NCBI GenBank assembly: GCA_012112355.1
Contig: GCA_012112355.1_3028.1
DNA length: 64,000 nucleotides
Origin: a phage
Direction: 5' to 3' (one strand)
A program made the translations under genes and the position numbers. Below are positions 16,890 through 62,583 of the stretch, one piece after another. How positions within the stretch are numbered: position 1 is the first letter of the stretch; every line of letters begins with the position of its first letter. Below the pieces are notes generated by a model. It did no database searches, was not told the DNA's origin, and saw nothing but the letters and a program-made list of their open reading frames with translations.

Positions 16890-16930
16890 TTTCTAATCTC
16901 CGTAATTCTGTATCAGTAGTTGATAGTTGT

Positions 16931-16960
16931 ATAGTACCACAGTATGCTTTGGTTGTAAAC
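16931..16960 (-). promoter_or_regulatory. T4-type early (sigma70) promoter upstream of motA: -35 GTTTAC, 18-nt spacer, TGG-TACTAT -10
   Basis: Minus-strand sense reads GTTTAC-aaccaaagcatactgtgg-TACTAT; member of a repeated promoter family in this window. Confidence 0.5.
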
Positions 16961-16990
16961 CGTTTTATGAAAAAATTTTTGAAATAAAAA

Positions 16991-17012
16991 AGGGAGAGCC
17001 GAGGCTCTCCCT
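16991..17012 (-). terminator. GC-rich hairpin (agggagagcc gaggctctccct) downstream of the small ORF after gene 52
   Basis: Perfect inverted repeat between the motA.1-like ORF and the motA promoter. Confidence 0.45.
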
Positions 17013-17016
17013 AAAA

Positions 17017-17166
17017 TTACTGCATGACTGTGATAACTGTCATGATAACACGTTGAATGCCGAACGCAAGAAGACCTCCTGCTACGGCTGGAACAACACC
17101 TACCCCCGCTAGTAAAATGCCGCCAGATACTAATGCAGCGCTTGTAATACCAATGAATGGACTCAT
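17017..17166 (-). CDS. small hydrophobic membrane protein (~49 aa), motA.1-like position
   Basis: Manual translation MSPFIGITSAALVSGGILLAGVGVVPAVAGGLLAFGIQRVIMTVITVMQ; ATG overlaps the gene 52 stop. Below track cutoff. Confidence 0.45.
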   Translation of the reverse strand: MSPFIGITSAALVSGGILLAGVGVVPAVAGGLLAFGIQRVIMTVITVMQ

Positions 17167-18491
17167 TTGATTTCCTCTAAATCTTTAGTGTATTCTGTAA
17201 CTACATCAGTAGTTTTCCAATATTCGTTTTCTTCTTTTTTAGCTTTAGCTTCTTCAGCAAGTTTCTTTGCTTCATCAGAAGTCATATGAAAAATATTCAT
17301 TCCAACTAGTTTATCAACATAAGAAGAATACATCTCAATTTTAGAAAGTTCTTCGGTCAGTTCTTTACGAGTTTTACCCTGTACAACAATTTCACCTGAA
17401 ATTACTTTCTTAATGAAATGCGCCTTGGCAAAGGCTAAACGAAATGCTGATTCAGTTTCTTTGATTTTGTTATCAATTCGTTTTTGGACATAAGTTTTAC
17501 GAACTTCAACGAAGTCTTTGATTAAATCAACTACGTTATCGTAAACTTGTAGCTTTCCTTTCTCATTAATAACGGTAATATTTTGGGAACGACGCTCAAT
17601 CAACCCGAAGTCTTTCATAATTTTTGCATGGCGTTCTTCTTCATTATCGCTCAAAGAATATTCTTTACGGAATTTAACTTTAAAGCCAAAGCCATGCTCA
17701 CCACAAGCATCATCCCACGTAATGAAGCCTTTATCTTCAAGTGGGTCTAAGATTTTACTCACATAAGTTTCACGATCATACTTATACGGAATCTCAGTGA
17801 TATGCATTTGAGTTCGTGAAGTAAACTTGTATGTTCCACGAATTTCATATTGCCCATCAATCTCAACGACTTCACCACGAAATTCTGGGAATTCTACCTT
17901 CGGTTTAGTTACTTTCTTTCCTTGAAGAGCTTGCAGTACAGCTTTCTTGACAGAAGAAACACTATGAGGAAGAATGTAAGTTGCATAACCAGTTGCAATA
18001 CCGGAAACACCATTAAGAAGAACAGTAGGAATAATAGGCAAATAGAAAGCAGGCGGAATGTGTTCTTTATCTTGATGTACTGGAGCATATTCAGTATCTT
18101 TATATACGTTATAGAAATTTTTACTTACACGAGCAAAAATATAACGACTAGCTGCTGCCTTTTGGACAGTACGAGAACCGAAGTTTCCTTGACCATCTAA
18201 CAAAGGAAAGTTATTATTCCAAGTATTAGCCATCAAAGCCCCTGCATCTTGTGCAGAGTTTTCACCATGGTGATATCCAAGGTCCGCTACACCACCTGCA
18301 ATAGAAGCAAGTTTGTGAAACTTATCTTTATTTCCTCGTGCCAAATCAAGAGCTCGAGCAATAACAAATCGTTGAACTGGCTTAAATCCATCAATCATAT
18401 TTGGAATAGCACGATTTTCAACCGTGTACATAGCATAAGCCAATGCTTCATTATCAATGATACTTTTTAAATCGCGATTATTCAGTTGCAT
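17163..18491 (-). CDS. 52: DNA topoisomerase II medium subunit gp52 (GyrA-like)
   Basis: 442 aa as T4 gp52; MQLNNRDLKSIIDNEALAYAMYTVENRAIPNMIDGFKPVQRFV. Confidence 0.9.
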   Translation of the reverse strand: MQLNNRDLKSIIDNEALAYAMYTVENRAIPNMIDGFKPVQRFVIARALDLARGNKDKFHKLASIAGGVADLGYHHGENSAQDAGALMANTWNNNFPLLDGQGNFGSRTVQKAAASRYIFARVSKNFYNVYKDTEYAPVHQDKEHIPPAFYLPIIPTVLLNGVSGIATGYATYILPHSVSSVKKAVLQALQGKKVTKPKVEFPEFRGEVVEIDGQYEIRGTYKFTSRTQMHITEIPYKYDRETYVSKILDPLEDKGFITWDDACGEHGFGFKVKFRKEYSLSDNEEERHAKIMKDFGLIERRSQNITVINEKGKLQVYDNVVDLIKDFVEVRKTYVQKRIDNKIKETESAFRLAFAKAHFIKKVISGEIVVQGKTRKELTEELSKIEMYSSYVDKLVGMNIFHMTSDEAKKLAEEAKAKKEENEYWKTTDVVTEYTKDLEEIK

Positions 18492-18495
18492 AAAT

Positions 18496-18636
18496 TTACC
18501 ATACTAGTGAATGTAGTGCCATAATAACATCAGAAATGAAAAGCACGACTTGAATCAATCCGAACATTACTCCATAATATAGTGCTACTAATAAAGTAGC
18601 AAGGGCTAATGAATAGCCCAAGATTTTCTTAATCAT
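18496..18636 (-). CDS. small membrane protein (~46 aa), 52.1-like position
   Basis: Manual translation MIKKILGYSLALATLLVALYYGVMFGLIQVVLFISDVIMALHSLVW; below track cutoff. Confidence 0.4.
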   Translation of the reverse strand: MIKKILGYSLALATLLVALYYGVMFGLIQVVLFISDVIMALHSLVW

Positions 18637-18787
18637 TAGTAGATAACAACACAAATGTTAAATATGCACACATACCCTGAGCTAAAGCTTGCGAAAACAC
18701 ACTGCTAGCATCGATACAGATAGTTAAAACACATGCTACTATCCAACAAATAAATGAAATAACTCCTAATAATTTTGCAATATTCAT
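18629..18787 (-). CDS. ac: acriflavine-resistance membrane protein Ac
   Basis: Manual translation MNIAKLLGVISFICWIVACVLTICIDASSVFSQALAQGMCAYLTFVLLSTND (~52 aa); size and position of T4 ac immediately after stp. Confidence 0.6.
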   Translation of the reverse strand: MNIAKLLGVISFICWIVACVLTICIDASSVFSQALAQGMCAYLTFVLLSTND

Positions 18788-18794
18788 ATTTTCC

Positions 18795-18875
18795 TCACTG
18801 GCGTCCGAAGACGCCTTTAGTTTTAAGATTATTACGATAGAACTGCATCACGTGTTCGTTGTGGAAATTACTCAT
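18795..18875 (-). CDS. stp: Stp peptide (26 aa), known modulator of host EcoprrI restriction and the PrrC anticodon nuclease
   Basis: Manual translation [26 protein letters not shown], identical to the T4 Stp peptide as I recall it; start overlaps the ndd stop (TAATG). Confidence 0.8.
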
Positions 18876-19929: not shown

Positions 19930-20043
19930 TCACATAAATCCAAAATAAGCGTTTAATACATCAATCATTAAAACGATTGGGAATATACTCAAAACTATTA
20001 GTATTATAACTACATTCCATATAGCTTTAATAATCTTTTTCAT
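19930..20043 (-). CDS. small membrane peptide (~37 aa)
   Basis: Track ORF 19930..20178 is probably over-extended: an early-promoter-like element lies inside it. The internal-ATG product is MKKIIKAIWNVVIILIVLSIFPIVLMIDVLNAYFGFM with an upstream GGAGG. Confidence 0.4.
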   Translation of the reverse strand: MKKIIKAIWNVVIILIVLSIFPIVLMIDVLNAYFGFM

Positions 20044-20071
20044 TTTCTGTTCCTCCGTAGTTGATAGGGTA

Positions 20072-20102
20072 ATAGTACCACGGAAGAACAGTCTTGTAAA
20101 CA
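20072..20102 (-). promoter_or_regulatory. T4-type early promoter (GTTTAC, 18-nt spacer, TGG-TACTAT)
   Basis: Minus-strand sense GTTTAC-aagactgttcttccgtgg-TACTAT; same family as the motA promoter. Confidence 0.45.
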
Positions 20103-20286
20103 ACTTTTTTAAAAATATTCGTAATAAATGTGAATACCAACTACTACCGCTGAAACCTGTGCAACCCACCACGCACAAGCAATAAGTACAGAATTCAAAA
20201 TTTTCATAATAACCTCATCACAAAAGTAAATGTTAAACAAATTACTGGAATACTAATTAACCAAACAAAACACCACCATAATGAAC

Positions 20287-20562
20287 TCATAGCTCAATCT
20301 CAGCGATTTTCATTTCATTACTATTAATAGCCTCTTTAAGACTATCTGAAAGAATTACATTCCAGTGGTCATTCATATGACCATTAACTAAGCGTGTAAT
20401 TTCTTCAGGAGTTGAAAAATAAGGCTGATCAGACTCCCAATGCGATAATCCTAAGCGAGTATAAATCATGCCTTCATCATCGCTCGAATATTCAACTGAC
20501 ACAAACTCATCAGTTATTTTATGTTTAGCGTAATAAAATTTAAATTTCATTTTATTCTCCAA
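20287..20562 (-). CDS. hypothetical protein
   Basis: 91-aa ORF upstream of denB with its own early-type promoter. Confidence 0.5.
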   Translation of the reverse strand: MENKMKFKFYYAKHKITDEFVSVEYSSDDEGMIYTRLGLSHWESDQPYFSTPEEITRLVNGHMNDHWNVILSDSLKEAINSNEMKIAEIEL

Positions 20563-20587
20563 ATCCGTATCAGTAGTTGATAGTTGT

Positions 20588-20617
20588 ATAGTACCACGGT
20601 CCTTGTGGTATGTAAAC
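20588..20617 (-). promoter_or_regulatory. T4-type early promoter
   Basis: GTTTAC-ataccacaaggaccgtgg-TACTAT on the minus strand; flanks are near-identical to the 16931 and 48154 copies. Confidence 0.45.
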
Positions 20618-20634
20618 CGTTTTGTGAAAAAATT

Positions 20635-21192
20635 TTAAATGGAAAGATACCATCCGTTGTAGTTGCTTTTTCTTACAACCTTACGAAGGTCTTCTCTGTC
20701 ACCGATGAACTTCGGAGTGTACTGGATGACACCTGGATGAATTTCTTTAGTGTTGAATATAATTATACAGTCAGCGACTTGATGATTTAGAATGGGCCCT
20801 AAATTTATTCCAGAACCATATGGATACTCTCCGCTGCATCCCGTTGTTACCGAAATCCAACGCGAGTCAGTTTGATGTGTTTTGACTTCTACACGAAGCC
20901 CGCAATATTTTGGATGCGCTAAAACATCCCATGCATACGTGTACGGATCATCGACATTTTCTTGGCCTTTATTGACATATCCGCTTAGCCAATCTGCCAC
21001 AAAAAACTCTGCGTACACAGCGATACGGCATCTTTCGATAACTTCTGCTTTATCCTGGTTCGGGTTTTGTTTTAAAGAGTATCTTGCTGTATCAGCAATT
21101 TTGACCTTCATTTCACTAGTCAAGTCACTGTTCGATAGGGTAAATGTCGGAATCTGAAATAGTCTCTGTAAACCCGGATTCGTTTTCTGCAT
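20635..21192 (-). CDS. denB: endonuclease IV DenB (dC-specific ssDNA endonuclease)
   Basis: 185 aa, same size as T4 DenB, and located next to rIIB as in T4. Confidence 0.75.
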   Translation of the reverse strand: MQKTNPGLQRLFQIPTFTLSNSDLTSEMKVKIADTARYSLKQNPNQDKAEVIERCRIAVYAEFFVADWLSGYVNKGQENVDDPYTYAWDVLAHPKYCGLRVEVKTHQTDSRWISVTTGCSGEYPYGSGINLGPILNHQVADCIIIFNTKEIHPGVIQYTPKFIGDREDLRKVVRKSNYNGWYLSI

Positions 21193-21255
21193 TTAAACTT
21201 TCCTTTATGTCGGAATCATAATTTCTCTTAAAACAAAAGGGCCGAAGCCCTTATT

Positions 21256-21450
21256 TTATTTGAATTGTGCGATTCTTTTCTCTAGACACTCAGCATAAGA
21301 TTTCATTGAGATGAACTGCGAAAGTAGCAGTTCTTGCTCAACTGCGTTAACTGTTAGAAACTTTGCGCTTTCTAAAAATTTGCTCAGTGCATTAATTTTG
21401 AGCATTAATTGATCGTATTCTTCTTTTACTCGTGCTTGATAACCTAACAT
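21256..21450 (-). CDS. hypothetical small protein
   Basis: 64-aa ORF between rIIB and denB, flanked by two GCCGAAGC hairpins. Confidence 0.45.
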   Translation of the reverse strand: MLGYQARVKEEYDQLMLKINALSKFLESAKFLTVNAVEQELLLSQFISMKSYAECLEKRIAQFK

Positions 21451-21482
21451 AATTTTCCTTAATATGATAAGGGCCGAAGCCC

Positions 21483-22421
21483 TTATTTAAATTGTTCAGT
21501 AACGTCTTCAACTACTTCGTATTGGCAGGTACGCATTTTAGCATCGTTGTAATCAATCGGAATTGATACTACATCGCGTGGATGTACTTTAACTTTTACA
21601 ACTCGGCTGGTTGAACCACCGAAGTGACGAATATAAGATTTAGAACACACATGCAGACCACGAGAACAAGTTTGTGTATCATCGTCATTCACACGAGTAC
21701 GCGGCATTTTAACTACTTTACCCGGACTGTTATCAAAGGTGTTTGAGTGACAGTCAAAGTAATTGCTGCGAACTACTTTCCAAGCATAGAAGTAACCATC
21801 TTCTGTAATTTCAATATCGTTTGCTACCAAGAAATCAAAGAGTCGAGATACCGCTTTTTGGCTTGGGTTTTCCAGCAGATTTTCCAAGAACGGAAAATAA
21901 AATTCAAAGTTTTCGCCTTTTTCCATCGAGTCAAGAATACGATCAACCAAACCAGACCGCAATTCGATATTTTGATAGAACAAGCTTCCACCTTCAATTC
22001 GAACATCGCCGGAAATATATTTTTCAACAGCACGGCGAACATTAATTTTTTGTGCAGCTTCTTCCAGCTTATCCGCTACAAGCAGATTAAGAATTTCCTG
22101 GAAGTTTGAATGAGTATTAGGAGTTGCGTTATAAGTTACACCGTCAACAGTAATTGAAATGAATTTTTTAGATGCATTCCAAATAATGTCAGATTTAGCA
22201 ACTGGAGCAATAACTGCATCGCTATTAACTTTAATTGTAATATCACCGCTAATAGTAACTTTAGAGCGTTTAGCTTCTTCAGCATTTTTCAAAACACGAC
22301 GAATTGTGTCAACCGATACACCTTGCCAATCAGCCAATTCCTGTTGGGTGTAATTACCACTTGAATACAGCTTAACAATTTCAGCTTGTTCGTTTTTGGT
22401 CAGGCATTTAATATTGTACAT
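21483..22421 (-). CDS. rIIB: rIIB protein
   Basis: 312 aa as T4 rIIB; MYNIKCLTKNEQAEIVKLYSSGNYTQQELADWQGVSVDTIRRVLKN. Confidence 0.9.
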   Translation of the reverse strand: MYNIKCLTKNEQAEIVKLYSSGNYTQQELADWQGVSVDTIRRVLKNAEEAKRSKVTISGDITIKVNSDAVIAPVAKSDIIWNASKKFISITVDGVTYNATPNTHSNFQEILNLLVADKLEEAAQKINVRRAVEKYISGDVRIEGGSLFYQNIELRSGLVDRILDSMEKGENFEFYFPFLENLLENPSQKAVSRLFDFLVANDIEITEDGYFYAWKVVRSNYFDCHSNTFDNSPGKVVKMPRTRVNDDDTQTCSRGLHVCSKSYIRHFGGSTSRVVKVKVHPRDVVSIPIDYNDAKMRTCQYEVVEDVTEQFK

Positions 22422-24824: not shown

Positions 24825-24849
24825 TCCAATATCCTCATTTGCCCAATTA

Positions 24850-24879
24850 ATTATACCACATCCTTGTGGTAAAGTAAAC
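24850..24879 (-). promoter_or_regulatory. T4-type early promoter (GTTTAC, 18 nt, TGG-TATAAT) inside the 3' end of gene 39
   Basis: Minus-strand sense GTTTAC-tttaccacaaggatgtgg-TATAAT. Confidence 0.45.
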
Positions 24880-26699
24880 TACTGGCTCATCCATTCTTTA
24901 CGAAGGTCAGCATTATCTCCCATGAGCATTTCAAAAAGCTCTTTCCAGTTCTCAGGAAGTTTAACAACATCATATACCGGATTTTGAATCATCTCACGAT
25001 ATTCAGATTTTTCCAAAGAGCCAAGTCCCTTAATATAACGGATGCTATGTTTAGGTAGAGCATCTTTAGCACTCTCATATTCAGCGACTGTATAAAACCA
25101 TTCTTGTTTTTTACCGACCTGAGCGATGATTACAGGAGTTTTGACAAAGCGAATTCTTCCTTGCTCAAACAATTCTGGCCAATTACTAAAAAATCCGAGC
25201 AGAGAAGGATAAATGCTTCCTAGACCATCATGGTCAGCATCAGTCATAATAGCGATATTATGATAATTCAAGTTTTCAGCTTTTTCACCGAGAACTAATC
25301 CAGTGATTGCGCAAATATCAAATAGTTCTTTGTTTTTAAGCATATCTGCATAAGACATACCCCAACTGTTGAGAACTTTACCACGTAATGGATAACCACC
25401 ATGAAGTTCTTTATCACGAACATCAATAAGATATCCGATAGCAGAATCACCCTCAGTCAAGAAAAGAGTAGTGTCAGCATCTTTACCGCAAAGATTCGCT
25501 TTGATATGTTTATGAACCTTAGCTTTAGAAGCCTTTTTAGCTGCTTTAGTTTCTGCTGCTTTTTCTGCCGCCAATTTACGAGCCAAAGCAGCTTCGATAA
25601 TCGGCATTAGAATTGCTTCATTATTTAGAATAGCGCGTGAAATCTTTTTAGCATCAAGTTGAATATGACTACGGATTTCACCAAATGGAGAAGTCAAACG
25701 CTCTTTAGTTTGAGAATCAAATCGCATGTTTTTCATATCACGAACAAACATAACGATAGTCAAACATTCTTTGACACGTGCTTTAGTTACATCAATTTTG
25801 AACTTACGTTTGATTTGTGGAATAAGGTCTTCACAAATATCATCCATAACACAGTCAATGTGATGGCCACCATTCTTAGTGTGAATGTTATTGACGTACG
25901 TCAACTGACGAAAACCATCCGGTGAACGACCAACCGCAATAGAACAATTTTCTTGTTCTTGAACAATAGCATGTTCATCATACTGTCGTGCATATTTCTT
26001 AAAATTGCCCTGAACCTTTTTACCATTAAAGGTAAATTGAATATCAGGATAAACAACAGCAAGTGTTTGGAGACGATCTAGTGTAATGTCAAGATAAACT
26101 TGGGACAGCTCATTAGTTTCAAATGACATAAAATCAGGAATGAAAGTAACACGGGTTCCTTTCCATTTTCCAGGAATATCTTCCCATGATTTATTTTCCA
26201 TGCCGTTTGAACAACGAACTACAATATTATTTTGACCATCACCAGTTTCACCGACAAACATCACAGAAAAAATGTTTGTCAAACTAGAACCAACACCATT
26301 CATACCGCCAGTGACGCGTTCTTTATCATCACCGAAGTTACCACCCGCTTTTGGAATAGTCCAAGCAGCAACTGGACCAGGAATTTCTTCACCGGTAGGT
26401 GTTTTAACCATCGCTTGTGGAATACCGCGACCGTTATCTTCAACTGTTACCTGATTATTTTTAATGGTAACATTAATTTTATTCGCGAATTTAAACTTAG
26501 TACGAATACCTTCATCGACTGAGTTATCGATAATTTCATCAATAAGCTTAACAAGACCAGGTACATACTGAACACTTTCCCATTTACCAAACAGAAAGCG
26601 CTCATGCATTTCATTAGCAGAAGAGCCAATGTACATGCCACTACGCTTTTTGATATGTTCAATATCGCTCAGAATTTTAATTTCATTCTTAATCATCAC
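24879..26699 (-). CDS. 39: DNA topoisomerase II large subunit (GyrB-like), single uninterrupted ORF equivalent to T4 genes 39 plus 60
   Basis: 606 aa; MMIKNEIKILSDIEHIKKRSGMYIGSS N-terminus. T4 splits this into gp39 and gp60 with a translational bypass; here it is one continuous ORF. Confidence 0.85.
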   Translation of the reverse strand: MMIKNEIKILSDIEHIKKRSGMYIGSSANEMHERFLFGKWESVQYVPGLVKLIDEIIDNSVDEGIRTKFKFANKINVTIKNNQVTVEDNGRGIPQAMVKTPTGEEIPGPVAAWTIPKAGGNFGDDKERVTGGMNGVGSSLTNIFSVMFVGETGDGQNNIVVRCSNGMENKSWEDIPGKWKGTRVTFIPDFMSFETNELSQVYLDITLDRLQTLAVVYPDIQFTFNGKKVQGNFKKYARQYDEHAIVQEQENCSIAVGRSPDGFRQLTYVNNIHTKNGGHHIDCVMDDICEDLIPQIKRKFKIDVTKARVKECLTIVMFVRDMKNMRFDSQTKERLTSPFGEIRSHIQLDAKKISRAILNNEAILMPIIEAALARKLAAEKAAETKAAKKASKAKVHKHIKANLCGKDADTTLFLTEGDSAIGYLIDVRDKELHGGYPLRGKVLNSWGMSYADMLKNKELFDICAITGLVLGEKAENLNYHNIAIMTDADHDGLGSIYPSLLGFFSNWPELFEQGRIRFVKTPVIIAQVGKKQEWFYTVAEYESAKDALPKHSIRYIKGLGSLEKSEYREMIQNPVYDVVKLPENWKELFEMLMGDNADLRKEWMSQ

Positions 26700-26765
26700 T
26701 TATCCTCGTTTGGTTTCGGGAATATTATACTCCGGTAATCATAAAGCTAAAGGCCCGAAGGCCTT

Positions 26766-27035
26766 TTATTTAAAACGAATAGTTGAATCCTTAAAGAACA
26801 GCCCAGAACATACTGTTCCTTCTACTTTCTGCCCGGTAGGTCCAATAGCACGAAATCCAGTATGTTGGAAATCATTTTCAGAGCAACCGAACCAGTTATA
26901 TCCAGTGATTTCAATATTAGTAAAACCACTTGAAGACAAAACTTTAGTTGCATTATCAGCATCAGTACATCCTACTAAAAACACTGCTAATACTAATGCT
27001 GCGATAGAACGATTAATATATTTCATAATTTTCAC
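26766..27035 (-). CDS. predicted lipoprotein
   Basis: 89 aa; MKIMKYINRSIAALVLAVFLVGC signal peptide with lipobox. Confidence 0.55.
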   Translation of the reverse strand: MKIMKYINRSIAALVLAVFLVGCTDADNATKVLSSSGFTNIEITGYNWFGCSENDFQHTGFRAIGPTGQKVEGTVCSGLFFKDSTIRFK

Positions 27036-28238: not shown

Positions 28239-28520
28239 TTAATTAAACAGTGGAGCGATACGTTTCAGAAGAGTAGCAGCACCTTTGGCGAATTTTACAT
28301 CATGAAAAACAGTTTCTTCTTCCGTTACAACACGAGCTTTAAAGTTTTCACAATCCCAATTTTTGCGAACAATCTTCAAAAGCTGCAGTAAATCTTTACA
28401 TTCAGCAATATCAATAACACATCCACGAGAATCTTCCATTATCGCACGATAACCATAAGCCATACCGTAATCGTTGAAAGATTGCTCGATGATAATTAAA
28501 TTTTCCATTTTATTCTCCAA
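28239..28520 (-). CDS. hypothetical protein
   Basis: 93-aa ORF preceded by a promoter-like repeat at 28530-28610. Confidence 0.45.
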   Translation of the reverse strand: MENKMENLIIIEQSFNDYGMAYGYRAIMEDSRGCVIDIAECKDLLQLLKIVRKNWDCENFKARVVTEEETVFHDVKFAKGAATLLKRIAPLFN

Positions 28521-28615
28521 GTTGTTTTCTGTATCAGTAGTTGATATTGATATAGTACCATAATCAACTACTGATGTATATAGTTTTATGAAAAAATTTT
28601 AAACTTTATGCAAAT

Positions 28616-29521: not shown

Positions 29522-29565
29522 AGTTATCTCTCACTTGTTAAAAAGATTTTATACTCCACGGAACC

Positions 29566-29595
29566 ATTATACTCTGGTCCCAAGAGTTTGTAAAC
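29566..29595 (-). promoter_or_regulatory. T4-type early promoter (GTTTAC, 18 nt, TATAAT)
   Basis: Minus-strand sense GTTTAC-aaactcttgggaccagag-TATAAT upstream of paralog 2. Confidence 0.4.
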
Positions 29596-30032
29596 TAGCT
29601 TACACGAACATTAATCACTGCGCTGCGAGGAACTACAGAGTACTCTCCAGCATGAACTACGTTCAGAAGTTCAACACCATCTTCAATCCACTGATCAGTC
29701 ACCCATCCACCCACAGGATTCGCGAATGGACGACGAATATAAACTGCCTTACACAGCAGATCAGTTGGATCTTCAGGTTTTTCAATTTCTGTCAATAGAC
29801 TAAAATCTTTTTCATAAATAATAAGCGGTGATACCATTCCATAATAGTTTCTAATTTCAATATACATCATACCGATAAGAATTCCGCTATTAACACTAAT
29901 AACAGTAAAAGGATATCCGCCAGTTAAACCAAGAAGTTCACAAAACTTATTATGAGCTGTATTAGACAGTACCGAAAAATTCTTAATTTCATCAAATTTT
30001 TTCAATTGATAAACAGCATTATTTTTAATCAT
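29595..30032 (-). CDS. paralog 3 of the same family
   Basis: 145 aa; C-terminal WVTDQWIEDGVELLNVVHAGEYSVVPR. Confidence 0.5.
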   Translation of the reverse strand: MIKNNAVYQLKKFDEIKNFSVLSNTAHNKFCELLGLTGGYPFTVISVNSGILIGMMYIEIRNYYGMVSPLIIYEKDFSLLTEIEKPEDPTDLLCKAVYIRRPFANPVGGWVTDQWIEDGVELLNVVHAGEYSVVPRSAVINVRVS

Positions 30033-30555: not shown

Positions 30556-30582
30556 TTTATTATCCTCAGTAGCTATGGTGTT

Positions 30583-30612
30583 ATAGTACCATAACTAACC
30601 GAGGAAGTAAAC
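30583..30612 (-). promoter_or_regulatory. T4-type early promoter
   Basis: GTTTAC-ttcctcggttagttatgg-TACTAT on the minus strand upstream of the 170-aa ORF. Confidence 0.45.
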
Positions 30613-30618
30613 AACTTT

Positions 30619-31302
30619 TTATCGTTTTGTTGGAAGAGACAGAGGATCGCATTCTTCCTCTGATGGAGCGTCTTCAAGACCCATAGCATAGCGCAAAGCA
30701 TACTTCATCATCAGGATGTCTTTCGCACAGTCATGAATGGAATCATGCGCAACGAATCCATTTAAAGTTCCCTTTGGAAGAGGACACGTGGTCATATCAC
30801 GAACAAGTAGAAGTGCTTCAATTCTAGTACGAATGTCGCGTTGATTCCAGAATTTACATGGTTCTAACTTAAATGTGTCAAGCTCATTCTCAGAAACGCC
30901 GTTAAGACGTTGAATATCGCGAATGAGATCGACTAAAATTGGAAAATCAAACGACATTCCACGGCACCAGCCTTGAGATTTCCAAGGATCGATATTATGC
31001 GCATTGATGTAATCATTAAATTTTGCAATACCATCGATAGTGCTTACATCTTCATCGGATGGTGCAATATTTTTTCTAGCTTCAGGAGATTGATTCTTCC
31101 ACCATTCAATAGTGCTTTTAGTAAAAAGACGATGTCCTTTTTGGCTTTTTAAATCAAATTTGATTTTAATGCCACGTGAAACTAATTCATCAAATGTTTC
31201 AACAACTTCCGGGTTAGGGTCAAAAGCAATTACAGCCAAATCAATAACAGCTGCTTTTTCACCGCTTCCCATTGTTTCAAAATCTATAATAAAATCAAAC
31301 AT
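30619..31302 (-). CDS. dexA: exonuclease A (DnaQ-like 3'-5' exonuclease)
   Basis: 227 aa as T4 DexA; MFDFIIDFETMGSGEKAAVIDLAVIAF (DxE exonuclease motif). Confidence 0.85.
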   Translation of the reverse strand: MFDFIIDFETMGSGEKAAVIDLAVIAFDPNPEVVETFDELVSRGIKIKFDLKSQKGHRLFTKSTIEWWKNQSPEARKNIAPSDEDVSTIDGIAKFNDYINAHNIDPWKSQGWCRGMSFDFPILVDLIRDIQRLNGVSENELDTFKLEPCKFWNQRDIRTRIEALLLVRDMTTCPLPKGTLNGFVAHDSIHDCAKDILMMKYALRYAMGLEDAPSEEECDPLSLPTKR

Positions 31303-34420: not shown

Positions 34421-34456
34421 ATTTTTATCACATCTTACGGACGGTTAACTACTTAT

Positions 34457-34486
34457 ACTATAACATTTTTACTTTAACTTGTAAAC
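34457..34486 (-). promoter_or_regulatory. T4-type early promoter upstream of srd
   Basis: GTTTAC-aagttaaagtaaaaatgt-TATAGT on the minus strand. Confidence 0.45.
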
Positions 34487-34542
34487 AATTTTATGAAAAA
34501 TGCTTTAAAAATTTCATGGTATAATGAATCTAAGTCCTTCCA

Positions 34543-35765: not shown

Positions 35766-35791
35766 GATAGCCTCCGTATACTTCAGAAGCT

Positions 35792-35821
35792 ATCATATCA
35801 TCGTTAGAAAGGAAAGTAAAC
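35792..35821 (-). promoter_or_regulatory. T4-type early promoter upstream of modB
   Basis: GTTTAC-tttcctttctaacgatga-TATGAT on the minus strand. Confidence 0.4.
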
Positions 35822-35832
35822 AACTTTTTGAA

Positions 35833-42410: not shown

Positions 42411-42439
42411 AACAATCTCCTCATTTAACCAACAAGACT

Positions 42440-42469
42440 ACTATACCATAGTCTTGTCAGCTTGTAAAC
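42440..42469 (-). promoter_or_regulatory. T4-type early promoter upstream of dmd
   Basis: GTTTAC-aagctgacaagactatgg-TATAGT on the minus strand. Confidence 0.45.
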
Positions 42470-43896
42470 TAAAATTTTAATTCATTCGCCAAAGCATCTA
42501 ACTGAGCTCGAGTGGATTCATTTCTTTGATAGCGATTCTGCTCAGCCTGAATCTGTTGTGAACCTGCTACTTCACTCACTTCAGTTGGAGTAGAATCTTG
42601 TTCAATTTCTACCCATTTTTGGTTTCCTTTTTGAACACCCATCAAAAACTTATTCCACTTATTCTTATCACCATATCGTGATTTGATTTGCTTAATGAGT
42701 TGCTGTTCAGCAGCTGCTAGCTCCTCGGTTTCAATGACCGCAAGCATAAAATCAGCTGTTGCTGGAAGACCAGCAGATTCTGCGATATCACTCATGTTAA
42801 CATCAGAAGAGTCCCAAGCTTGTTTACCGACCTGTGCTGCAGTCCAAAGAACAGTTTCGGTTTCAACAGCAAGAGCACGCAATTCCTCTGCAATAGCTTT
42901 AACAGTTGCGTAACTATTTTCTGAATAAACTCTAATGCGGCAAGATTTACAAATACCTAGATAGTCGACAATAATGATTGTTGGAACAAAATTCTTTTTG
43001 AGCTTCAATTCATTCAAGAGAGACCTGAATGTGTTAGCATCTGCCCCACCAGTAGGGTACTGTTTAACAATTAAACGACCGAGAGTAGATTTCTCACGCC
43101 ATTTTTCCATTTTTCCTTTATACTCAGCGTAAGAAATATGCCCATCATCAATGTCATCAAGAGAAACATCGAGCATATTAGCGTCAATACGTTTAGCACA
43201 GACTTCTTCTGCCATTTCCATGGAGATATAAAGAACGTTATGTCCAAGCTGTAAATAATCTGCTGCTAATGAACACAATCCTAATGATTTACCAACGTTA
43301 ACGCCAGCCATTAAAACGTTCAGTGTTCCAGTTTCAGCTCCGCCTTTAGTAATTTTGTTTAGAATTCTGAGTTTAAATGGAACCTTACGAGCTTTATTCA
43401 TATAAGATAGCCAACGTGCTTCATAGTCATCCATCCAATCATGGCCAACGTAGCTATCAAATGAAATTGATAATGCTTGTCGCATGATGTCAGGAATAGC
43501 ACCAACATCCGGCATTTTCTTATTTCGTTTTTCCGGAGGAAGCTCAGCATTAGTTTGAATTTCGATTATTTTAGACGTAGCATTAAACATCGCCCTTTGC
43601 TGAACATATTTTTCTGTTTCTTTTACTAACCAGCTGTGGTCTTCCGGAGAATCAGCCAGTTTTGAAATAAGTGTTTTTACACCAGAATATTCTGTTTCAG
43701 TAAATGAACTATTTTCTAATGCAACATTTAACGCATTAATAGATGGAACGCTATGATACTCATTAACATGAGATTTAATTAATTTGAATGTATTTTTAGC
43801 TGGACCACTTTCAAAATATTCTGAATCCATATATGGCCAAACTTTTGAAAAATAAGCTTGATCAAATATGAGATGAGAAAGAATAATTTCTACCAC
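42469..43896 (-). CDS. 41: replicative DNA helicase gp41 (DnaB-like)
   Basis: 475 aa as T4 gp41; MVEIILSHLIFDQAYFSKVWPYMDSEYF; Walker A GVNVGKS. Confidence 0.9.
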   Translation of the reverse strand: MVEIILSHLIFDQAYFSKVWPYMDSEYFESGPAKNTFKLIKSHVNEYHSVPSINALNVALENSSFTETEYSGVKTLISKLADSPEDHSWLVKETEKYVQQRAMFNATSKIIEIQTNAELPPEKRNKKMPDVGAIPDIMRQALSISFDSYVGHDWMDDYEARWLSYMNKARKVPFKLRILNKITKGGAETGTLNVLMAGVNVGKSLGLCSLAADYLQLGHNVLYISMEMAEEVCAKRIDANMLDVSLDDIDDGHISYAEYKGKMEKWREKSTLGRLIVKQYPTGGADANTFRSLLNELKLKKNFVPTIIIVDYLGICKSCRIRVYSENSYATVKAIAEELRALAVETETVLWTAAQVGKQAWDSSDVNMSDIAESAGLPATADFMLAVIETEELAAAEQQLIKQIKSRYGDKNKWNKFLMGVQKGNQKWVEIEQDSTPTEVSEVAGSQQIQAEQNRYQRNESTRAQLDALANELKF

Positions 43897-45501: not shown

Positions 45502-46350
45502 TTAATCAACTGCTATCGGATGAATAGCATTAAACTTATGAAATGCTTCTGATTTTTCTTTGCGCGAAACACACATGCGAAGAACCTTTAATGGCTCGTC
45601 TTCTTCACCCAACGATTTTCGTTTTTCAATATTCGATGTTTTCCAACGAGCTTGCTCTGGAAACTCTCTATTGATTTGCTCGAGCGCTCTATTATGTTTA
45701 GAATTACTACGAATTGAACTGCACCCGCCAGGAGCTTGTGCTTTTCCAGATACAACCAGATATTTGAACAAGGCCAAATGCGGATAACCTTGATTAATTA
45801 AATTGAGAAATGCATACATATCTTCGCATAAATCAATTTTTCCATACCCAATTTGTTCTGTCGTAAGTTTTCCGAGGTCATACCATGTATTCGTGAATCC
45901 ATATGAATTTTCACGATAATTACCCCAAGATGAAGTAATTTTAAAAATAGGTAGACGAGCATGGCCATGATAATACCCACAATCCATGGCATCCTCAACA
46001 TATTGAATCAATTCATAGAACTGTTCACGGGTTAATTGATTGACTTTATCTACACAACGACGGTCATCTCTTTTTCGCATTGAACTCATACGAATAGTAG
46101 TATCATCGTCAATCATCCAGATTCGTTGACCTGCATACATATCAGTAATTGCTTTACGAGTACCAGCAATTCCATTTACATCGTCAGGAATAGTTATAAT
46201 TTTAGCTCTAGACCCATAGGCATCATAATAAGCTTTTTCTTCATGTTCACGCACTACAATATGGGGTTCATAATTAGTCGGAAACATATCAAGGGCAGAA
46301 ACTGCCCCGACACGCTGATAACTTGGAATTACGAATTGAATCATTTCCAC
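45502..46350 (-). CDS. DNA glucosyltransferase at the bgt locus; probably the T2/T6-type beta-glucosyl-HMC-alpha-glucosyltransferase rather than T4 beta-gt
   Basis: 282 aa between uvsX and 42. T4 beta-gt is 351 aa with a different N-terminus, so this is not T4 beta-gt; family assignment is by position and size. Confidence 0.5.
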   Translation of the reverse strand: MEMIQFVIPSYQRVGAVSALDMFPTNYEPHIVVREHEEKAYYDAYGSRAKIITIPDDVNGIAGTRKAITDMYAGQRIWMIDDDTTIRMSSMRKRDDRRCVDKVNQLTREQFYELIQYVEDAMDCGYYHGHARLPIFKITSSWGNYRENSYGFTNTWYDLGKLTTEQIGYGKIDLCEDMYAFLNLINQGYPHLALFKYLVVSGKAQAPGGCSSIRSNSKHNRALEQINREFPEQARWKTSNIEKRKSLGEEDEPLKVLRMCVSRKEKSEAFHKFNAIHPIAVD

Positions 46351-47874: not shown

Positions 47875-47884
47875 AATAATTTCC

Positions 47885-48121
47885 TCAAATGCAAGTAGTA
47901 ATTACTCCAGTAGTGCTTATGCAGGTATTACCCATTTGCACACCTAAAGATCCATTTGTATTCACATGAAGATTATCATCAATTTTAACTGATATTTTAC
48001 CATTAGTGTGAATAACAGTGCTAGATTCAATCACAGGTTGAGTATCATTTTCAACACTAACAAATGGAACTGCTGCTAATGCAACTAAACAAACTGCTAA
48101 GCATCCCATAACAATTTTCAT
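47885..48121 (-). CDS. predicted secreted small protein
   Basis: Track ORF 47885..48175; likely start at the internal ATG (MKIVMGCLAVCLVALAAVPFVSVEN signal-like N-terminus), because a promoter element overlaps the N-terminal extension. Confidence 0.45.
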   Translation of the reverse strand: MKIVMGCLAVCLVALAAVPFVSVENDTQPVIESSTVIHTNGKISVKIDDNLHVNTNGSLGVQMGNTCISTTGVITTCI

Positions 48122-48153
48122 TTTATTCTCCAAATCCGTATTAGTTGATAGTT

Positions 48154-48183
48154 GTATAGTACCATGGAAGAACATTCTTGTAA
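48154..48183 (-). promoter_or_regulatory. T4-type early promoter
   Basis: GTTTAC-aagaatgttcttccatgg-TACTAT on the minus strand. Confidence 0.45.
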
Positions 48184-48271
48184 ACAGTTTTGTGAAAATT
48201 TTTTAGGGAATTCTAAATGTCCAGAATCATCTGTTTTTCATAAGTATAGATTTATATTACTTGTATGAAAA

Positions 48272-56786: not shown

Positions 56787-57802
56787 TGTGTTGCCTCTAC
56801 ATATAGCTGATTTGCATATTGAATAAGTGCTTCACGGTCAGAATCAGTGATGTCTGGAATTGCATTAATGTATTCTTCCATCAATGTCTGAAGCGATTGA
56901 ACTTCAACCTCTTCGCTGTCATCTGACTCGACAGAGTTATCAATCTTTGACACAACTCGTAACGAATGCACAACTTTTTCTAGTTCAGATTCGAACTTCG
57001 TTAGATTTTTGTCTACTTCAGTTACTATAACACGTACTGATAGATTTGTAAAATCTTTATAGTCAATTTTTCCTTTAAATGGATAATGAATTCTACGATG
57101 CCAGGTAGTATTGTTTGGAATAAATTCCATTCGTTCTGTTTCTGTATCAAACATCCAGAACCCACGAGGGTCATTCTCGTCACCTGCAGTTAGTGTCCAT
57201 GGTGTCCCAATATATCTGACGTTTGCAGCCTCAGAAATAGTATGGAAGTGACCAGACCACACTTCTTTATAAGTCTTAAGGAAATCAGGTTCAAGACCGT
57301 GAGATTTCATTCCTTTATAAAAATAAAATCCATTCAGTTCCCAGTGACCAACACAAAAAGAAGCAGATGAAGTTTTGATGTGCTCAAGAATTTCACCAGT
57401 ATTTTCTTCACACATCCAAGGAATTAAATCAATTAAACATCCGTCAAAATCTACTGTTGTAGGCTTATCATATACTTTAACATTGGGATATTTAGCCAAA
57501 AGCTCAGTAGAAGCATTTGGATGCATTACATTTTTGTAGTGGAGATCGTGATTTCCTACAATAGTATGTAATGTGATTCCAGCATCATCAAGCATTTGAA
57601 CTATTTCGCGAGCGAACTCCATAGTTTTATGCGTGATTGCTTTTCGCACATCAAAAATATCGCCGTATTGAATCCATGTAGTAATTCCATTTTTCTTAGA
57701 ATATTCTATTGCTTGTTTAATTCCATCAATTTGAATACCGCGAATCCACTCATCATCAGCTTTAACGCCTAAATGCCAATCACCTAAATTTAAAATTTTC
57801 AT
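56783..57802 (-). CDS. 47: recombination nuclease subunit gp47 (Mre11/SbcD-like)
   Basis: 339 aa as T4 gp47; MKILNLGDWHLG phosphoesterase motif. Confidence 0.9.
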   Translation of the reverse strand: MKILNLGDWHLGVKADDEWIRGIQIDGIKQAIEYSKKNGITTWIQYGDIFDVRKAITHKTMEFAREIVQMLDDAGITLHTIVGNHDLHYKNVMHPNASTELLAKYPNVKVYDKPTTVDFDGCLIDLIPWMCEENTGEILEHIKTSSASFCVGHWELNGFYFYKGMKSHGLEPDFLKTYKEVWSGHFHTISEAANVRYIGTPWTLTAGDENDPRGFWMFDTETERMEFIPNNTTWHRRIHYPFKGKIDYKDFTNLSVRVIVTEVDKNLTKFESELEKVVHSLRVVSKIDNSVESDDSEEVEVQSLQTLMEEYINAIPDITDSDREALIQYANQLYVEATQ

Positions 57803-57961
57803 ATATCAAGAACCGTCATTGAAATGCAAAATAAAATTATTGAAATAAATCCATCTGGAGTGCTAAAGAACCCAATCCAACATGCTCTAGTGAATAGATA
57901 AAATGCAAGAAAAAGTATCACATATCCAAGAAATATCATTATATCAAACTCCGTATAAAGC

Positions 57962-57979
57962 TAAAGGGCCGAAGCCCTT
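57962..57979 (-). terminator. hairpin (aaagggc-cgaa-gcccttt) downstream of a-gt
   Basis: GCCGAAGC stem-loop followed by a T-rich run, overlapping the a-gt stop. Confidence 0.45.
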
Positions 57980-59181
57980 TATTTTGTAATAATGTCAAAT
58001 TGCTCTTTAAAGCAGAAGCTTGAATCTTGATGCTGATACAAAAATTCATACGCTTTTTCTCGCTCACGGTCATAAAGAGCTCGGTCAGATGACAGTTCTT
58101 TAATACGCTCGAATGTTGATTCCATATCATTTTCATCAAACCAAACGATACCGCTATCATGCGAAATTAGCGGAGTATTATCAACACGGAATTTTAAATT
58201 TTCGCCAGTAGATTTCCAAAATACCGGAATTGTTCCACATGCACCAAGCTCGAGATGAGTATATTCTAAAGAGCGCTGTAGATATTTTTTATCCAACTTA
58301 CTCAACTGATAACCAAATCCGGATTTACTCATACGTTCAAGCATTTCGCTATTTACATAACGGTCAAGAATTTGCGTTGGCAAATTAGGAGCAATTTTAA
58401 TTTGGTCTACTTGATGAAGACGATAATACTCGTATGGAATTCCTTTTTCTTTAATAGGAATGAACGCTGGAGAACGTTCCAGACCTTCCATAATAGTACT
58501 TAGTCCTGCAGGTTTAAGATGTTTTTCATGAAAATCAAACATCTGATAAAAACCTTTCCATGTAGTCGTACGACCAATCCAACGGTTGATATTCATGTTA
58601 ATTTCAGAAACATCTTTCCAGTAAGTTGACCGAACCTTCGCAATATCCATAGGAGGCTGAAAGTTATATACTGTCGGTGCTTCTTCAATATCATCAAACA
58701 GAGAAACAGTTTCTGGATACCATTCTTTCATCAGAACTTTATTAAAATCACCATTATCAGAATGGCTAAAAATAACATCAGCTCGACGAACAGTTTCTTC
58801 TAATCCCAAATTTCGACGCAAAGAAAGAGAAGAATGGTCATGCTGATAAACTACAACACGAACCGAAGGTTTAATGTTATCAATAATTTTTTTATAGTTA
58901 TTAATAGTGTCTTCTTCAACCGAAGTAGCAGGAACTGAATTGATAATTAGAATATCACAATCATTTACCAGCTTAAGTGTTTTATCATATTCTTTTGCCA
59001 ATAAAACCGGAATTGAAAATGATTTATAATCATGCGCGCAATTACGAGTAAATGATTTATCTTTAGCATAAACCAAAGTCACTTCATGACCATTTTTAAT
59101 AAACCAATCACGTTGCTCGAGTGAGAATTTTGTTACACCACAACCTTCAAGACCTCGAGCCATAAAAATACATACTTTCAT
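57979..59181 (-). CDS. a-gt: DNA alpha-glucosyltransferase
   Basis: 400 aa as T4 alpha-gt; MKVCIFMARGLEGCGVTKFSLEQRDWFIKNGHEVTLVYAKDKSF. Confidence 0.85.
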   Translation of the reverse strand: MKVCIFMARGLEGCGVTKFSLEQRDWFIKNGHEVTLVYAKDKSFTRNCAHDYKSFSIPVLLAKEYDKTLKLVNDCDILIINSVPATSVEEDTINNYKKIIDNIKPSVRVVVYQHDHSSLSLRRNLGLEETVRRADVIFSHSDNGDFNKVLMKEWYPETVSLFDDIEEAPTVYNFQPPMDIAKVRSTYWKDVSEINMNINRWIGRTTTWKGFYQMFDFHEKHLKPAGLSTIMEGLERSPAFIPIKEKGIPYEYYRLHQVDQIKIAPNLPTQILDRYVNSEMLERMSKSGFGYQLSKLDKKYLQRSLEYTHLELGACGTIPVFWKSTGENLKFRVDNTPLISHDSGIVWFDENDMESTFERIKELSSDRALYDREREKAYEFLYQHQDSSFCFKEQFDIITK

Positions 59182-59205
59182 TTAATATCCTCTTTGTTTT
59201 GGTTT

Positions 59206-61235: not shown

Positions 61236-61237
61236 AA

Positions 61238-61564
61238 TTATACCTTAGTAATTTTCAGGTCTGCAAATTTTTTCTTGCGTTGATTTTTCATGCGACGAAT
61301 AGTTTTATCGGAAATTTCATGCTTTTGATAAGCTTTAGATTCTACACCAAAAGCTTTAACATCAAATTCTGACAAGATATATTGAACCAGCAATTCACGG
61401 ACAGTATTGCGTCCAATCTTCTGATCATTCTGTTTCATCGTCTGATGAAGCTCTTTTTCCCATTTATCCAAAATTTGAGGAGTTACAATATCGCCTTTTT
61501 CTAGCAAAGAAATTACTTTATCATATGCGTAAGAATTAATGGCGTTTTTAATTTGAATAGTCAT
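61238..61564 (-). CDS. hypothetical protein
   Basis: 108-aa ORF. Confidence 0.45.
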   Translation of the reverse strand: MTIQIKNAINSYAYDKVISLLEKGDIVTPQILDKWEKELHQTMKQNDQKIGRNTVRELLVQYILSEFDVKAFGVESKAYQKHEISDKTIRRMKNQRKKKFADLKITKV

Positions 61565-61602
61565 ACATTATCCTCAATTACGTTAAAATTTTATTATCCA
61601 AA

Positions 61603-61618
61603 AAGGGCCGAAGCCCTT
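61603..61618 (-). terminator. hairpin (aagggc-cgaa-gccctt)
   Basis: GCCGAAGC stem-loop overlapping the stop of the 66-aa ORF. Confidence 0.4.
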
Positions 61619-61817
61619 AGCTAAACTTTTTGGCACCCTTCCAGCCTTCATACATCATTGCGGCTGATATTAATATTGCTCCTGAGCAACTTGAATATTT
61701 GTGATTCCAAAACCAGTTTAGAAAAACTTCATCATCAATACCTTGGGCTATCATATTTTCAAAGAACTGACGACGAGATTCGGCAATTCGTTGTGATAAT
61801 TTAGATTCAGGATTCAT
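61617..61817 (-). CDS. hypothetical small protein
   Basis: 66-aa ORF. Confidence 0.4.
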   Translation of the reverse strand: MNPESKLSQRIAESRRQFFENMIAQGIDDEVFLNWFWNHKYSSCSGAILISAAMMYEGWKGAKKFS

Positions 61818-62033
61818 TTAAATTTTCCAGTTACCATTTTCATCAATAAATTTAATCCAGTCATTTACTGACCACTTAGTTGTATCGCCTTTTGGAGTAA
61901 CATTTAAAGTGTATAACCCCTGCTTAAAAAGCATTCGTTTAATATTCATATTTTCCTCAGCTGTAACGATAACATTCGTTTGATTTGCGCTTAGCAACTC
62001 GTTGAGATGTATTATAATCAAAATCATCGTCAA
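61818..62033 (-). CDS. hypothetical small protein (start uncertain)
   Basis: 71-aa track ORF overlapping the next ORF by 77 nt; the true start may be the internal ATG near 61949. Confidence 0.3.
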   Translation of the reverse strand: MTMILIIIHLNELLSANQTNVIVTAEENMNIKRMLFKQGLYTLNVTPKGDTTKWSVNDWIKFIDENGNWKI

Positions 62034-62289
62034 TGTAAACTGATTTTTTCAACTTTCTTACTTCACCACGTAATTGGCGATTTAGCTCATCTTTAACTTC
62101 TGAATCAATACCTTTCATTCTACGCCATTTATCTGAGCGAAAAATGTTTTCAACCATATCTTTATGACTTACCCCATCAGGAGCTTTACGCTTTCCGAAA
62201 TAGTCATAATCACGCACTTTTAAGTCTTTACGACGATACGTTTTACCCATGGAGTTTAATTTCCTTAGCAACTGAACTAAATGCAGCAC
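61957..62289 (-). CDS. hypothetical basic protein
   Basis: 110-aa Lys/Arg-rich ORF. Confidence 0.4.
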   Translation of the reverse strand: MLHLVQLLRKLNSMGKTYRRKDLKVRDYDYFGKRKAPDGVSHKDMVENIFRSDKWRRMKGIDSEVKDELNRQLRGEVRKLKKSVYIDDDFDYNTSQRVAKRKSNECYRYS

Positions 62290-62425
62290 GATCGCAAATC
62301 ATGCGTTTATGTAACTTGAGTATAATATAGCAAACTTCAAAACTATTTACATGAGTAACACGAACAGCATTACCATTAATGAGATAATACTGTCCCTTTT
62401 TAATTTCTTTATCAACCACAACCAT
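62243..62425 (-). CDS. hypothetical small protein
   Basis: 60-aa ORF with an early-type promoter upstream. Confidence 0.4.
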   Translation of the reverse strand: MVVVDKEIKKGQYYLINGNAVRVTHVNSFEVCYIILKLHKRMICDRAAFSSVAKEIKLHG

Positions 62426-62455
62426 ATCAATTCCTCAAAGGTAATTCATGTGTTA

Positions 62456-62485
62456 ATAATACCACAGTTTGAGCTCGTTGTAAAC
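62456..62485 (-). promoter_or_regulatory. T4-type early promoter (GTTTAC, 18 nt, TGTGG-TATTAT)
   Basis: Minus-strand sense GTTTAC-aacgagctcaaactgtgg-TATTAT. Confidence 0.45.
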
Positions 62486-62583
62486 AACTTTGTGAAAATT
62501 ATTTTAGGGAATGATAAGAAGGGAACGATAGCTTAGAATGGTAATATACAGAATGTAAGAAAGAAAGGCCCAGAGGGCCCGTC

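Follow-up and report, generated by a model that had tools for sequence, protein, structure and literature searches.

Early promoters of the T4 type, a subset of them cassette-like, in a Tequatrovirus genome segment

The early promoters of bacteriophage T4 are of the 'uber UP/-35/TGn/-10' type (PMC2988021), with GTTTAC spanning −36 to −31, a UP region rich in A and, ahead of −12, a stretch rich in GT (PMC1524935), and have been compared with T7 PA1 and lambda PL (PMC2988021). Some are stimulated by Alt ADP-ribosylation of one alpha subunit (PMC2988021), and a T in position −33 together with this modification of alpha modulates some of them (PMC2988021, PMC1524935). A second described system is the promoter-early stem-loop (PeSL) cassette of RB49/phi1 and T4/PST, a composite of AT-rich region, −35, −10, stem-loop, Shine-Dalgarno sequence (SD) and ATG (PMC2839356, PMC4122927); it is conserved over ~100 bp, occurs in multiple copies beside variable small open reading frames (ORFs), and has the promoter consensus TTTACW-N17-TAYWAT in T4/PST (PMC4122927). 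Its stem-loops have been viewed as terminators or attenuators (PMC2839356), a view extended to T4/PST (PMC4122927). In the T4 late genes e, soc, 49 and I-TevI, finally, the promoter lies in the 5′ arm or loop of a hairpin and the SD or AUG in the 3′ arm, and only the short transcript exposes the ribosome-binding site (RBS) (PMC3014915). Here a family of minus-strand elements in a 64,000-nucleotide stretch of phage DNA (contig GCA_012112355.1_3028.1 of assembly GCA_012112355.1; hereafter the window) is compared with these systems. Eleven of the elements had been listed in a first-pass annotation as T4-type early promoters ahead of minus-strand early genes.

The family was found to comprise 18 sites, every one of them on the minus strand, which are very probably early promoters of a T4-like phage, used by unmodified E. 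coli sigma-70 RNA polymerase right after DNA injection. The first-pass reading is thus upheld by orthology to T4, by published T4 start sites, by the strand bias and by the 19-38 nt between predicted transcription start site (TSS) and ATG. By its sequence the window is Tequatrovirus (T4-like coliphage) DNA: a 6-kb piece matched Tequatrovirus genomes at 96-97.6% nucleotide identity, the genes annotated there being topoisomerase gp52, MotA, DenB, rIIB and Ndd, and BLAST placed the window collinear with T4 from ~160.2 kb via the map origin to ~42.9 kb. The region originally annotated is the classic minus-strand early region, which runs from asiA to motA, rIIB, rIIA, gene 39, motB and dda, continues through modA/B and genes 41, 43 and 46/47, and ends at nrdH.

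All 11 listed sites proved real, each with a minus-strand GTTTAC exactly 18 nt upstream of a −10 box. Their listed coordinates correspond to the plus-strand start of the minus-strand −10 hexamer, and 48154 should read 48156; here each site is instead named by the coordinate of the G of GTTTAC, or by the equivalent position at 28581 and 57053 (ATATAC and TTTTAC), and promoter spans cover −60 to +1 with this G set at −36. The pattern GTTTAC-N10-22-TAYWAT occurred 15 times against 1.1 expected, a count reached in 0 of 100 shuffles, and 14 of the 15 matches combined minus-strand location with a gap of 18 nt. The originally proposed TGG-TA(C/T)(T/A)AT was too narrow, as TGG precedes the −10 box in 8 of the 11 sites and GAG, TGT or TGA in the others, and three of the 11 boxes (TACTAT five times, TATAAT and TATAGT twice each, TATGAT and TATTAT once each) fall outside TA(C/T)(T/A)AT. 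A position weight matrix (PWM), a search that the first-pass annotation had itself proposed, was built from the 11 sites, iterated and scanned over both strands; it converged on 16 minus-strand sites and no plus-strand site, with scores of 24-53 for real matches and at most 14.7 in shuffled windows. A lower threshold added 57053 (score 10.4) and 37923 (score 6.0, yet an exact GTTTAC-N18-TATAAT), giving the total of 18. Above a score of 10 there were 17 minus-strand matches and none on the plus strand, where ~0.15 would be expected by chance. Seven sites (2909, 14495, 28581, 37923, 41966, 57053 and 62040) are additional to the original list, 2909 and 14495 falling outside the range that it covered. 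A generic TTGACA/TATAAT scan of the window showed no enrichment, with 78 matches where 81 were expected, so that what is enriched is the promoter form specific to T4. Elsewhere, GTTTAC-N18-TACAAT at 3408-3437 (minus strand), within the region matching T4 rnh, scored below 4 and is likely a chance match or a very weak site.

The anatomy of the sites is that of the T4 promoters. GTTTAC is exact at 16 of 18 sites, TAnnnT stands at the correct spacing in all 18 (17 nt when counted from TTTACA to TAnnnT), and TG is present at −15/−14 in 14. The consensus of the 18 sites reads ...aAaAa.tTTtcA.AaA.ttGTTTACAa....a....a.tgTGgTAttATA.... Between −64 and −37 they average 74.6% A+T, against 65% for the whole window, and seven match the E. 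coli UP consensus with at most 3 mismatches, compared to 1.8% of random positions; an UP-like region is absent at 24879, 29595, 37923 and 42469. The seven thereby resemble strong full-UP sigma-70 promoters such as those of the E. coli rrnB P1 type, T7 A1 and lambda PL, with a near-consensus UP element at −57 to −41, although the −35 box of the window and of T4 is GTTTAC and not TTGACA. An ATG-started ORF begins 19-38 nt past the predicted TSS at 16 of the 18 sites, and the named genes served are rnh, asiA, motA, ndd.4, rIIA.1, motB, motB.2, srd, modB, mrh.2, sp, dmd and 55.6.

For each of the 18 sites T4 has an orthologue in the corresponding position, with an ungapped identity of 74-100% (at least 84% for 17 of 18, the lowest value, at 48185, being due to a 3-nt indel), and the distances from TSS to ATG are the same as in these orthologues. 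The window-derived PWM, applied to the whole T4 genome, returned 36 minus-strand sites and none on the plus strand. Subtracting 36 from the T4 coordinate of the G of GTTTAC gives 133,295 in one case, the early promoter named Pe133295 in the T4 record. In three others it gives 35,662 (from 35698; Pe35.3), 41,225 (from 41261; Pe40.4) and 150,727 (from 150763; Pe148.6), the positions determined for these promoters by primer extension (PMC6024815). Three of the four T4 starts matched by the matrix have orthologues in the window. Compared with the T4 early promoters (PMC2988021, PMC1524935), which share the position of GTTTAC, the TGn-extended −10 box, the A/T-rich UP element and the minus-strand orientation ahead of early genes, no substantive difference was found beyond a few nucleotide changes and three window cassettes that drive a small ORF lost in T4.

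Some observations weigh against this assignment. The sites at 57053 and 62040 lie within coding sequence without a start codon nearby. In leave-one-out scoring nine of the 11 original sites scored 16-45, while 24879 (3.1) and 29595 (−5.9) scored low and have core −35 and −10 boxes only, so their assignment leans mainly on T4 orthology. Absolute PWM scores are moreover inflated since the matrix was trained on the sites that it scored; the T4 start sites and the strand bias are independent of this training.

For activity, timing and RegB cleavage in this phage, as for any role of the hairpins described below, the T4 literature serves as the guide. The A/T-rich UP element at about −57 to −41 would contact the alpha C-terminal domains, while regions 4, 3 and 2 of sigma-70 in the holoenzyme would contact the −35, TGn and −10 elements, respectively, by which host promoters would be out-competed; transcription would start ~7 nt past the −10 box. 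GGAG is found within the SD of 10 of the 16 leaders having a nearby ATG, and would be a target for RegB, whose cleavage would confine expression to the early burst. In T4 MotA is an early product and motA mRNA is cut by RegB within the SD (PMC2988021). A strong promoter joined to a RegB-cleavable GGAG means that such a cassette would encode a strong yet brief burst of expression.

The individual promoters, all on the minus strand, are given here in map order. The first, before rnh (site 2909; 2873-2933), was found by PWM and is 100% identical to the T4 site with its G at 150763, the Pe148.6 orthologue. The promoter before asiA (14495; 14459-14519) has GTTTAC-N18-TATTAT with TGn, is 99% identical to T4 161211, and is followed by the asiA ATG 25 nt past the predicted TSS. 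The motA promoter (16960; 16924-16984) has a full UP element with 1 mismatch to the consensus, GTTTAC, TGG-TACTAT, the shared leader ATCAACTACTGATAC and an SD with GGAG. Directly upstream of it on the same strand is an intrinsic terminator stem-loop (16991-17012) with a 9-bp stem of which 6 pairs are GC, followed by TTTTTTATTT. The record of Yersinia phage fPS-2 labels the homologous motA site 'predicted early promoter' and likewise has a terminator ahead of it.

The promoter before the ndd.4 homologue (20101; 20065-20125) has a spacer that pairs with its leader and SD, and is the element whose −10 box at 20072 lies inside a mechanically called ORF, 19930-20178. This ORF starts at TTG and is over-extended, as had been argued: in the close relative teqhal a 37-aa gene has its ATG at the position of window 20043 and the upstream gene ends at ~20109, so the core promoter is intergenic. 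The predicted TSS at 20065 is followed by GGAGG-N7-ATG. In T4, the annotated ndd.4 start (166764) is only 7 nt past the predicted TSS (166771) and overlaps the SD (T4 record 166749-166771), and the window (20043-20065) has ACG at the codon of that start. The true ndd.4 start is probably the ATG 15 nt downstream of the annotated one.

Next is the cassette (20617; 20581-20641; repeat families D1 and D11) before ORF 20287-20550, the T4 orthologue of which drives ndd.6. The promoter before rIIA.1 (24879; 24843-24903), GTTTAC-N18-TATAAT with TGG, is 99% identical to T4 2458, has no UP element (8 mismatches to the UP consensus) and overlaps the 3′ end of the fused gene 39/60. The cassette before ORF 28239-28508 (28581; 28545-28605; family D1) has the weak −35 box ATATAC and a spacer that is a 13-bp perfect inverted copy of its leader. 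The motB promoter (29595; 29559-29619) is limited to the core elements, its −10 box lying in the loop of a hairpin, and the motB.2 promoter (30612; 30576-30636), 99% identical to T4 8218, has a hairpin between spacer and SD. The latter is the probable orthologue of T4 P8.1, which was dissected by mutation (PMC2988021), the 8.2-kb site being equated with P8.1 from its name.

The srd promoter (34450-34510) reads GTTTAC-N18-TATAGT, has 3 UP mismatches and is 98% identical to T4 11851. Its UP element is overlapped at 34501-34525 by TGCTTTA-N12-TATAAT on the plus strand, which resembles a MotA box and has TGG ahead of the −10 box; this may be a chance match or a divergent middle promoter running antisense to modA. 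The modB promoter (35821; 35785-35845) is 100% identical to T4 13186 and its −10 region pairs with SD and AUG. The mrh.2 promoter (37923; 37887-37947; T4 orthologue 15288) has GTTTAC-N18-TATAAT with TGG; just ahead of it is a terminator-like stem-loop with a T-run, and GGAATCCTTCGGGGTTCCTTTTTT lies upstream. The promoter before sp (spackle; 41966; 41930-41990) is 100% identical to T4 20109, and that before dmd (42469; 42433-42493) has its −10 box in a hairpin loop. The cassette before ORF 47885-48121 (48185; 48149-48209; families D1, D5 and D11) has a T4 counterpart that drives imm.1. The promoter inside gene 47 (57053; 57017-57077) is 99% identical to T4 35698 and orthologous to Pe35.3, and the Pe40.4 orthologue (62040; 62004-62064) corresponds to T4 41261. 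The last, before the 55.6 homologue (62485; 62449-62509), has GTTTAC-N18-TATTAT with TGG, 2 UP mismatches and 95% identity to T4 41706.

The elements had been described as a ~70-bp near-identical family, which holds for a subset only. Over −60 to +10 (70 nt) pairwise identity among the 11 original sites lies between 33 and 80%, with a mean of 49% against 27% for random 70-mers; near-identity is confined to 16960, 20617 and 48185 (71-80%), more loosely 20101 and 62485, together with 28581, which had been missed. Sharing of longer downstream sequence is likewise restricted to the six copies of repeat family D1, which a repeat search of the window gave as 76 nt long, 61-84% identical to the reference and located at 16904, 20045, 20561, 28525, 48129 and 62429. 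A 33-nt repeat family covers SD, ATG and first codons at 20542, 28500 and 48113. There is thus a cassette subfamily of only five or six copies, 60-84% identical and ~110 nt long, which extends from the UP element as far as the start codon and is nested in a wider family having just the promoter elements in common. Its promoter-discriminator-leader-RBS order is found at 16960, 20617, 28581 and 48185, and more loosely at 20101 and 62485. The 96-nt motA cassette matched at 3,960 places in 570 phage records, or 7-8 per genome, and the organisms listed were all T4-like phages of Escherichia, Shigella, Yersinia, Salmonella and allied hosts; an IMG/VR search with DenB gave 8 loci only. The shared leader CAACTACTGA was considered as a discrete binding site or operator. 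It has only 4 exact copies, three in leaders and one inverted in the 28581 spacer, and relatives tolerate 3-nt indels inside it (CAACTACTGATAC, CAACTGATAC, CAACTAATAC), and for these reasons a separate operator is not claimed.

At six promoters (20101, 28581, 29595, 30612, 35821 and 42469) the spacer between −35 and −10 is an inverted repeat of the leader. Folding of −36 to +55, with z computed against a shuffled upstream arm and a threshold of z < −2.5, gave −18.9 to −29 kcal/mol and z of −3.2 to −6.3 for these six, the other twelve promoters having z of −0.5 to +1.5. Individually, all on the minus strand, the values were −22.7 kcal/mol and z −3.9 at 20101 (~20047-20091), −20.2 and −4.9 at 28581, −21.5 and −3.2 at 29595, −24 to −29 and −6.3 at 30612, −20.8 to −23.4 and −3.7 at 35821, and −18.9 and −3.8 at 42469. 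In T4, 15 of 36 promoters passed the threshold where ~0.2 would be expected. The sense strand was favoured, 15 against 7 hairpins passing the threshold and 14 of 16 being more extreme on the sense strand, and G-U pairs make up ~15% of the hairpin pairs.

These six nested hairpins are the published PeSL design. In PeSL, too, the stem-loop often lies between −35 and −10 or over −10 and contains G-T pairs, and the conserved, multi-copy character beside variable small ORFs is seen in a cassette subset (D1, D5, D11). In difference from PeSL, a significant promoter-spanning hairpin is present at only 6 of 18 promoters; 16960 and 37923 have an upstream terminator instead, and the remaining 10 have neither. 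The stem-loops may also be read as a translational gate, in which the spacer arm blocks the RBS in read-through RNA while RNA from the nested promoter, being without that arm, is translated; the 5′ arm would then be transcribed only by read-through from upstream. This reading is quite possible but on balance doubtful. At 20101, 30612 and 35821, and in 9 of the 15 significant T4 hairpins, nucleotides of the SD are paired with sequence that precedes the TSS, but the SD is outside the hairpin in the other half (28581, 29595 and 42469). No U-run directly follows the stem at any of the six, and only at 29595 does one begin 9 nt downstream, leaving five of six with none; this, the sense-strand bias and the G-U pairs speak for the gate. 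Against it, a PeSL stem-loop was found to lower downstream reporter expression (PMC2839356). The 20101 hairpin pairs hold in 6 distinct relatives with one-sided changes of the C-G/U-G type only, and covariation in this hairpin among close relatives did not exceed that in shuffles. For the dmd promoter (42469), a T4 paralogue at 57990 keeps the stem via two double-sided changes. To RB69 the window PWM transfers poorly, with 9 matches in 50 kb, and a strong nested hairpin was present at only 2 of these 9.

Control of this kind is established for e, soc, 49 and I-TevI among the late genes of T4 (PMC3014915), to which the arrangement is similar; those promoters are however late ones with the effect shown experimentally, whereas here the promoters are early and the effect on translation is one that we infer. 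That ~40% of Tequatrovirus early promoters (6 of 18 here and 15 of 36 in T4) sit in sense-strand hairpins and that, at many of these, translation of the small early gene may depend on the promoter used is a proposition that we regard as rather unlikely. If true, early genes would have a parallel to the late-gene switch of e/soc/49, instead of the terminator role given to PeSL stem-loops.

Beyond their identity as early promoters, the repeats had been taken as dispersed homology for recombination. This is plausible and matches the published PeSL hypothesis (PMC2839356, PMC4122927) and the mosaic sharing of modules, which is indirect evidence of exchange, but the local indels against T4 do not demonstrate it. 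The window differs from T4 by 14 breaks in collinearity, 3 of which adjoin a cassette (P ~0.09 by a rough binomial estimate), and others involve the homing-endonuclease genes mobA, segF, segA and mobB. The three are ~200-235-bp segments absent from T4 (20320-20544, 28301-28498 and 47875-48107), each comprising most of the small ORF behind a cassette. These ORFs (20287-20550, 28239-28508 and 47885-48121) belong to phrog_2390, 3720 and 4189, respectively, all of unknown function. They are unrelated proteins of different PHROG families and not paralogues, whereas paralogy would have pointed to a mobile gene. At the ndd.6 junction T4 retains ATGAAA and then the last seven codons of the window ORF, as a mini-ORF MKIAEIEL before ndd.6; at the cef cassette junction it retains a frameshifted 3′ remnant; and at imm.1 the cassette ATGAAAAT is joined to the gene's own ATGAAAAT. 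The junction sequences identify T4 as the deleted form. The deletions end in repeats of 6-8 nt around start codons (AAATGAAA, AAAATT and ATGAAAAT), which together with the 3′ remnants argues that the indels are not exchanges between two promoter copies. PeSL-type indels with endpoints in two cassettes were not found among the three cassette-adjacent indels against T4, so PeSL-to-PeSL exchange leaves the local differences from T4 unexplained.

It is unlikely that the elements are chiefly mobile or recombinogenic linkers of the PeSL type that shuffle small genes, with promoter activity secondary. Such linkers would account for the mosaic distribution of modules, the spacer AAGAnTGTTCTTCC being common to 20101 and 48185, the leader to 16960, 20617, 28581 and 48185, and the RBS GGATTTGGAGAATAAAATG to 20617 and 48185, and for the interchange of TACCCTATC and ACAACTATC at one same promoter among relatives. 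The three ORFs absent from T4 stand directly behind cassettes, and PeSL-to-PeSL mini-circles were shown in RB49/phi1 (PMC2839356). Against it stand the deletion junctions, the small share of breaks that adjoin a cassette, and the finding that every copy is in promoter position and orientation ahead of a gene. That the sites are MotA/AsiA-dependent middle promoters or gp55 late promoters is exceedingly improbable: they do have the sigma-70-type −10 box, often with TGn, of about half of the T4 middle promoters (PMC2988021), but none of the 18 has the MotA box (a/t)(a/t)(a/t)TGCTTtA centred at −30, of which 17 matches with a −10 box lie at other positions in the window, none has the −10 box TATAAATA, and middle promoters lack the −35-type GTTTAC found here (PMC2988021).

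Other differences from T4 were observed along the window. Genes 39 and 60 are fused (24879-26699), the mobA/60.1 insertion of T4 being absent; segF, dam and mobB are missing (differing segments 38260-38676, 39197-39218 and 59172-59197); and segA and beta-gt are replaced by a different 282-aa ORF at 45502-46350 (segment 45412-46359). A 49-bp direct repeat, 98% identical, at 40619-40667 and 40977-41025 spans a gene end, SD and ATG. Between its copies lies ORF 40623-40979 (118 aa, phrog_4122), whose C-terminus resembles the gp61.2 family and which has no T4 counterpart; the arrangement resembles the tandem insertion or duplication of a gene, with the repeated junctions as its borders. A second repeat family consists of GC stem-loops of the GGGCC-GAAG-CCC type with flanking A and T runs (21222-21262, 21454-21494, 26741-26771, 57949-57989 and 61588-61628), which are intrinsic terminators, some readable on both strands. 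Mosig et al. 1998, cited in PMC2839356, noted the GGGC/GCCC motif at T4 deletion endpoints.

Taken together, the case for the family is made from the anatomy of the sequences, their bias to one strand, their orthology to T4 promoters that have been mapped, and the statistics of the hairpins. The elements are T4 early promoters, a subset of them PeSL-type cassettes, as already known for T4 and its relatives, and as both the promoters and their stem-loop PeSL variants were previously described, little is added to the biology overall. What results is a checkable map of 18 predicted early transcription starts and the correction of at least one over-extended ORF. Two modest additions are that the hairpins are strand-biased and often lie over the ribosome-binding site, and that gene losses in T4 beside the cassettes occurred via start-codon microhomology and not by promoter-to-promoter exchange.

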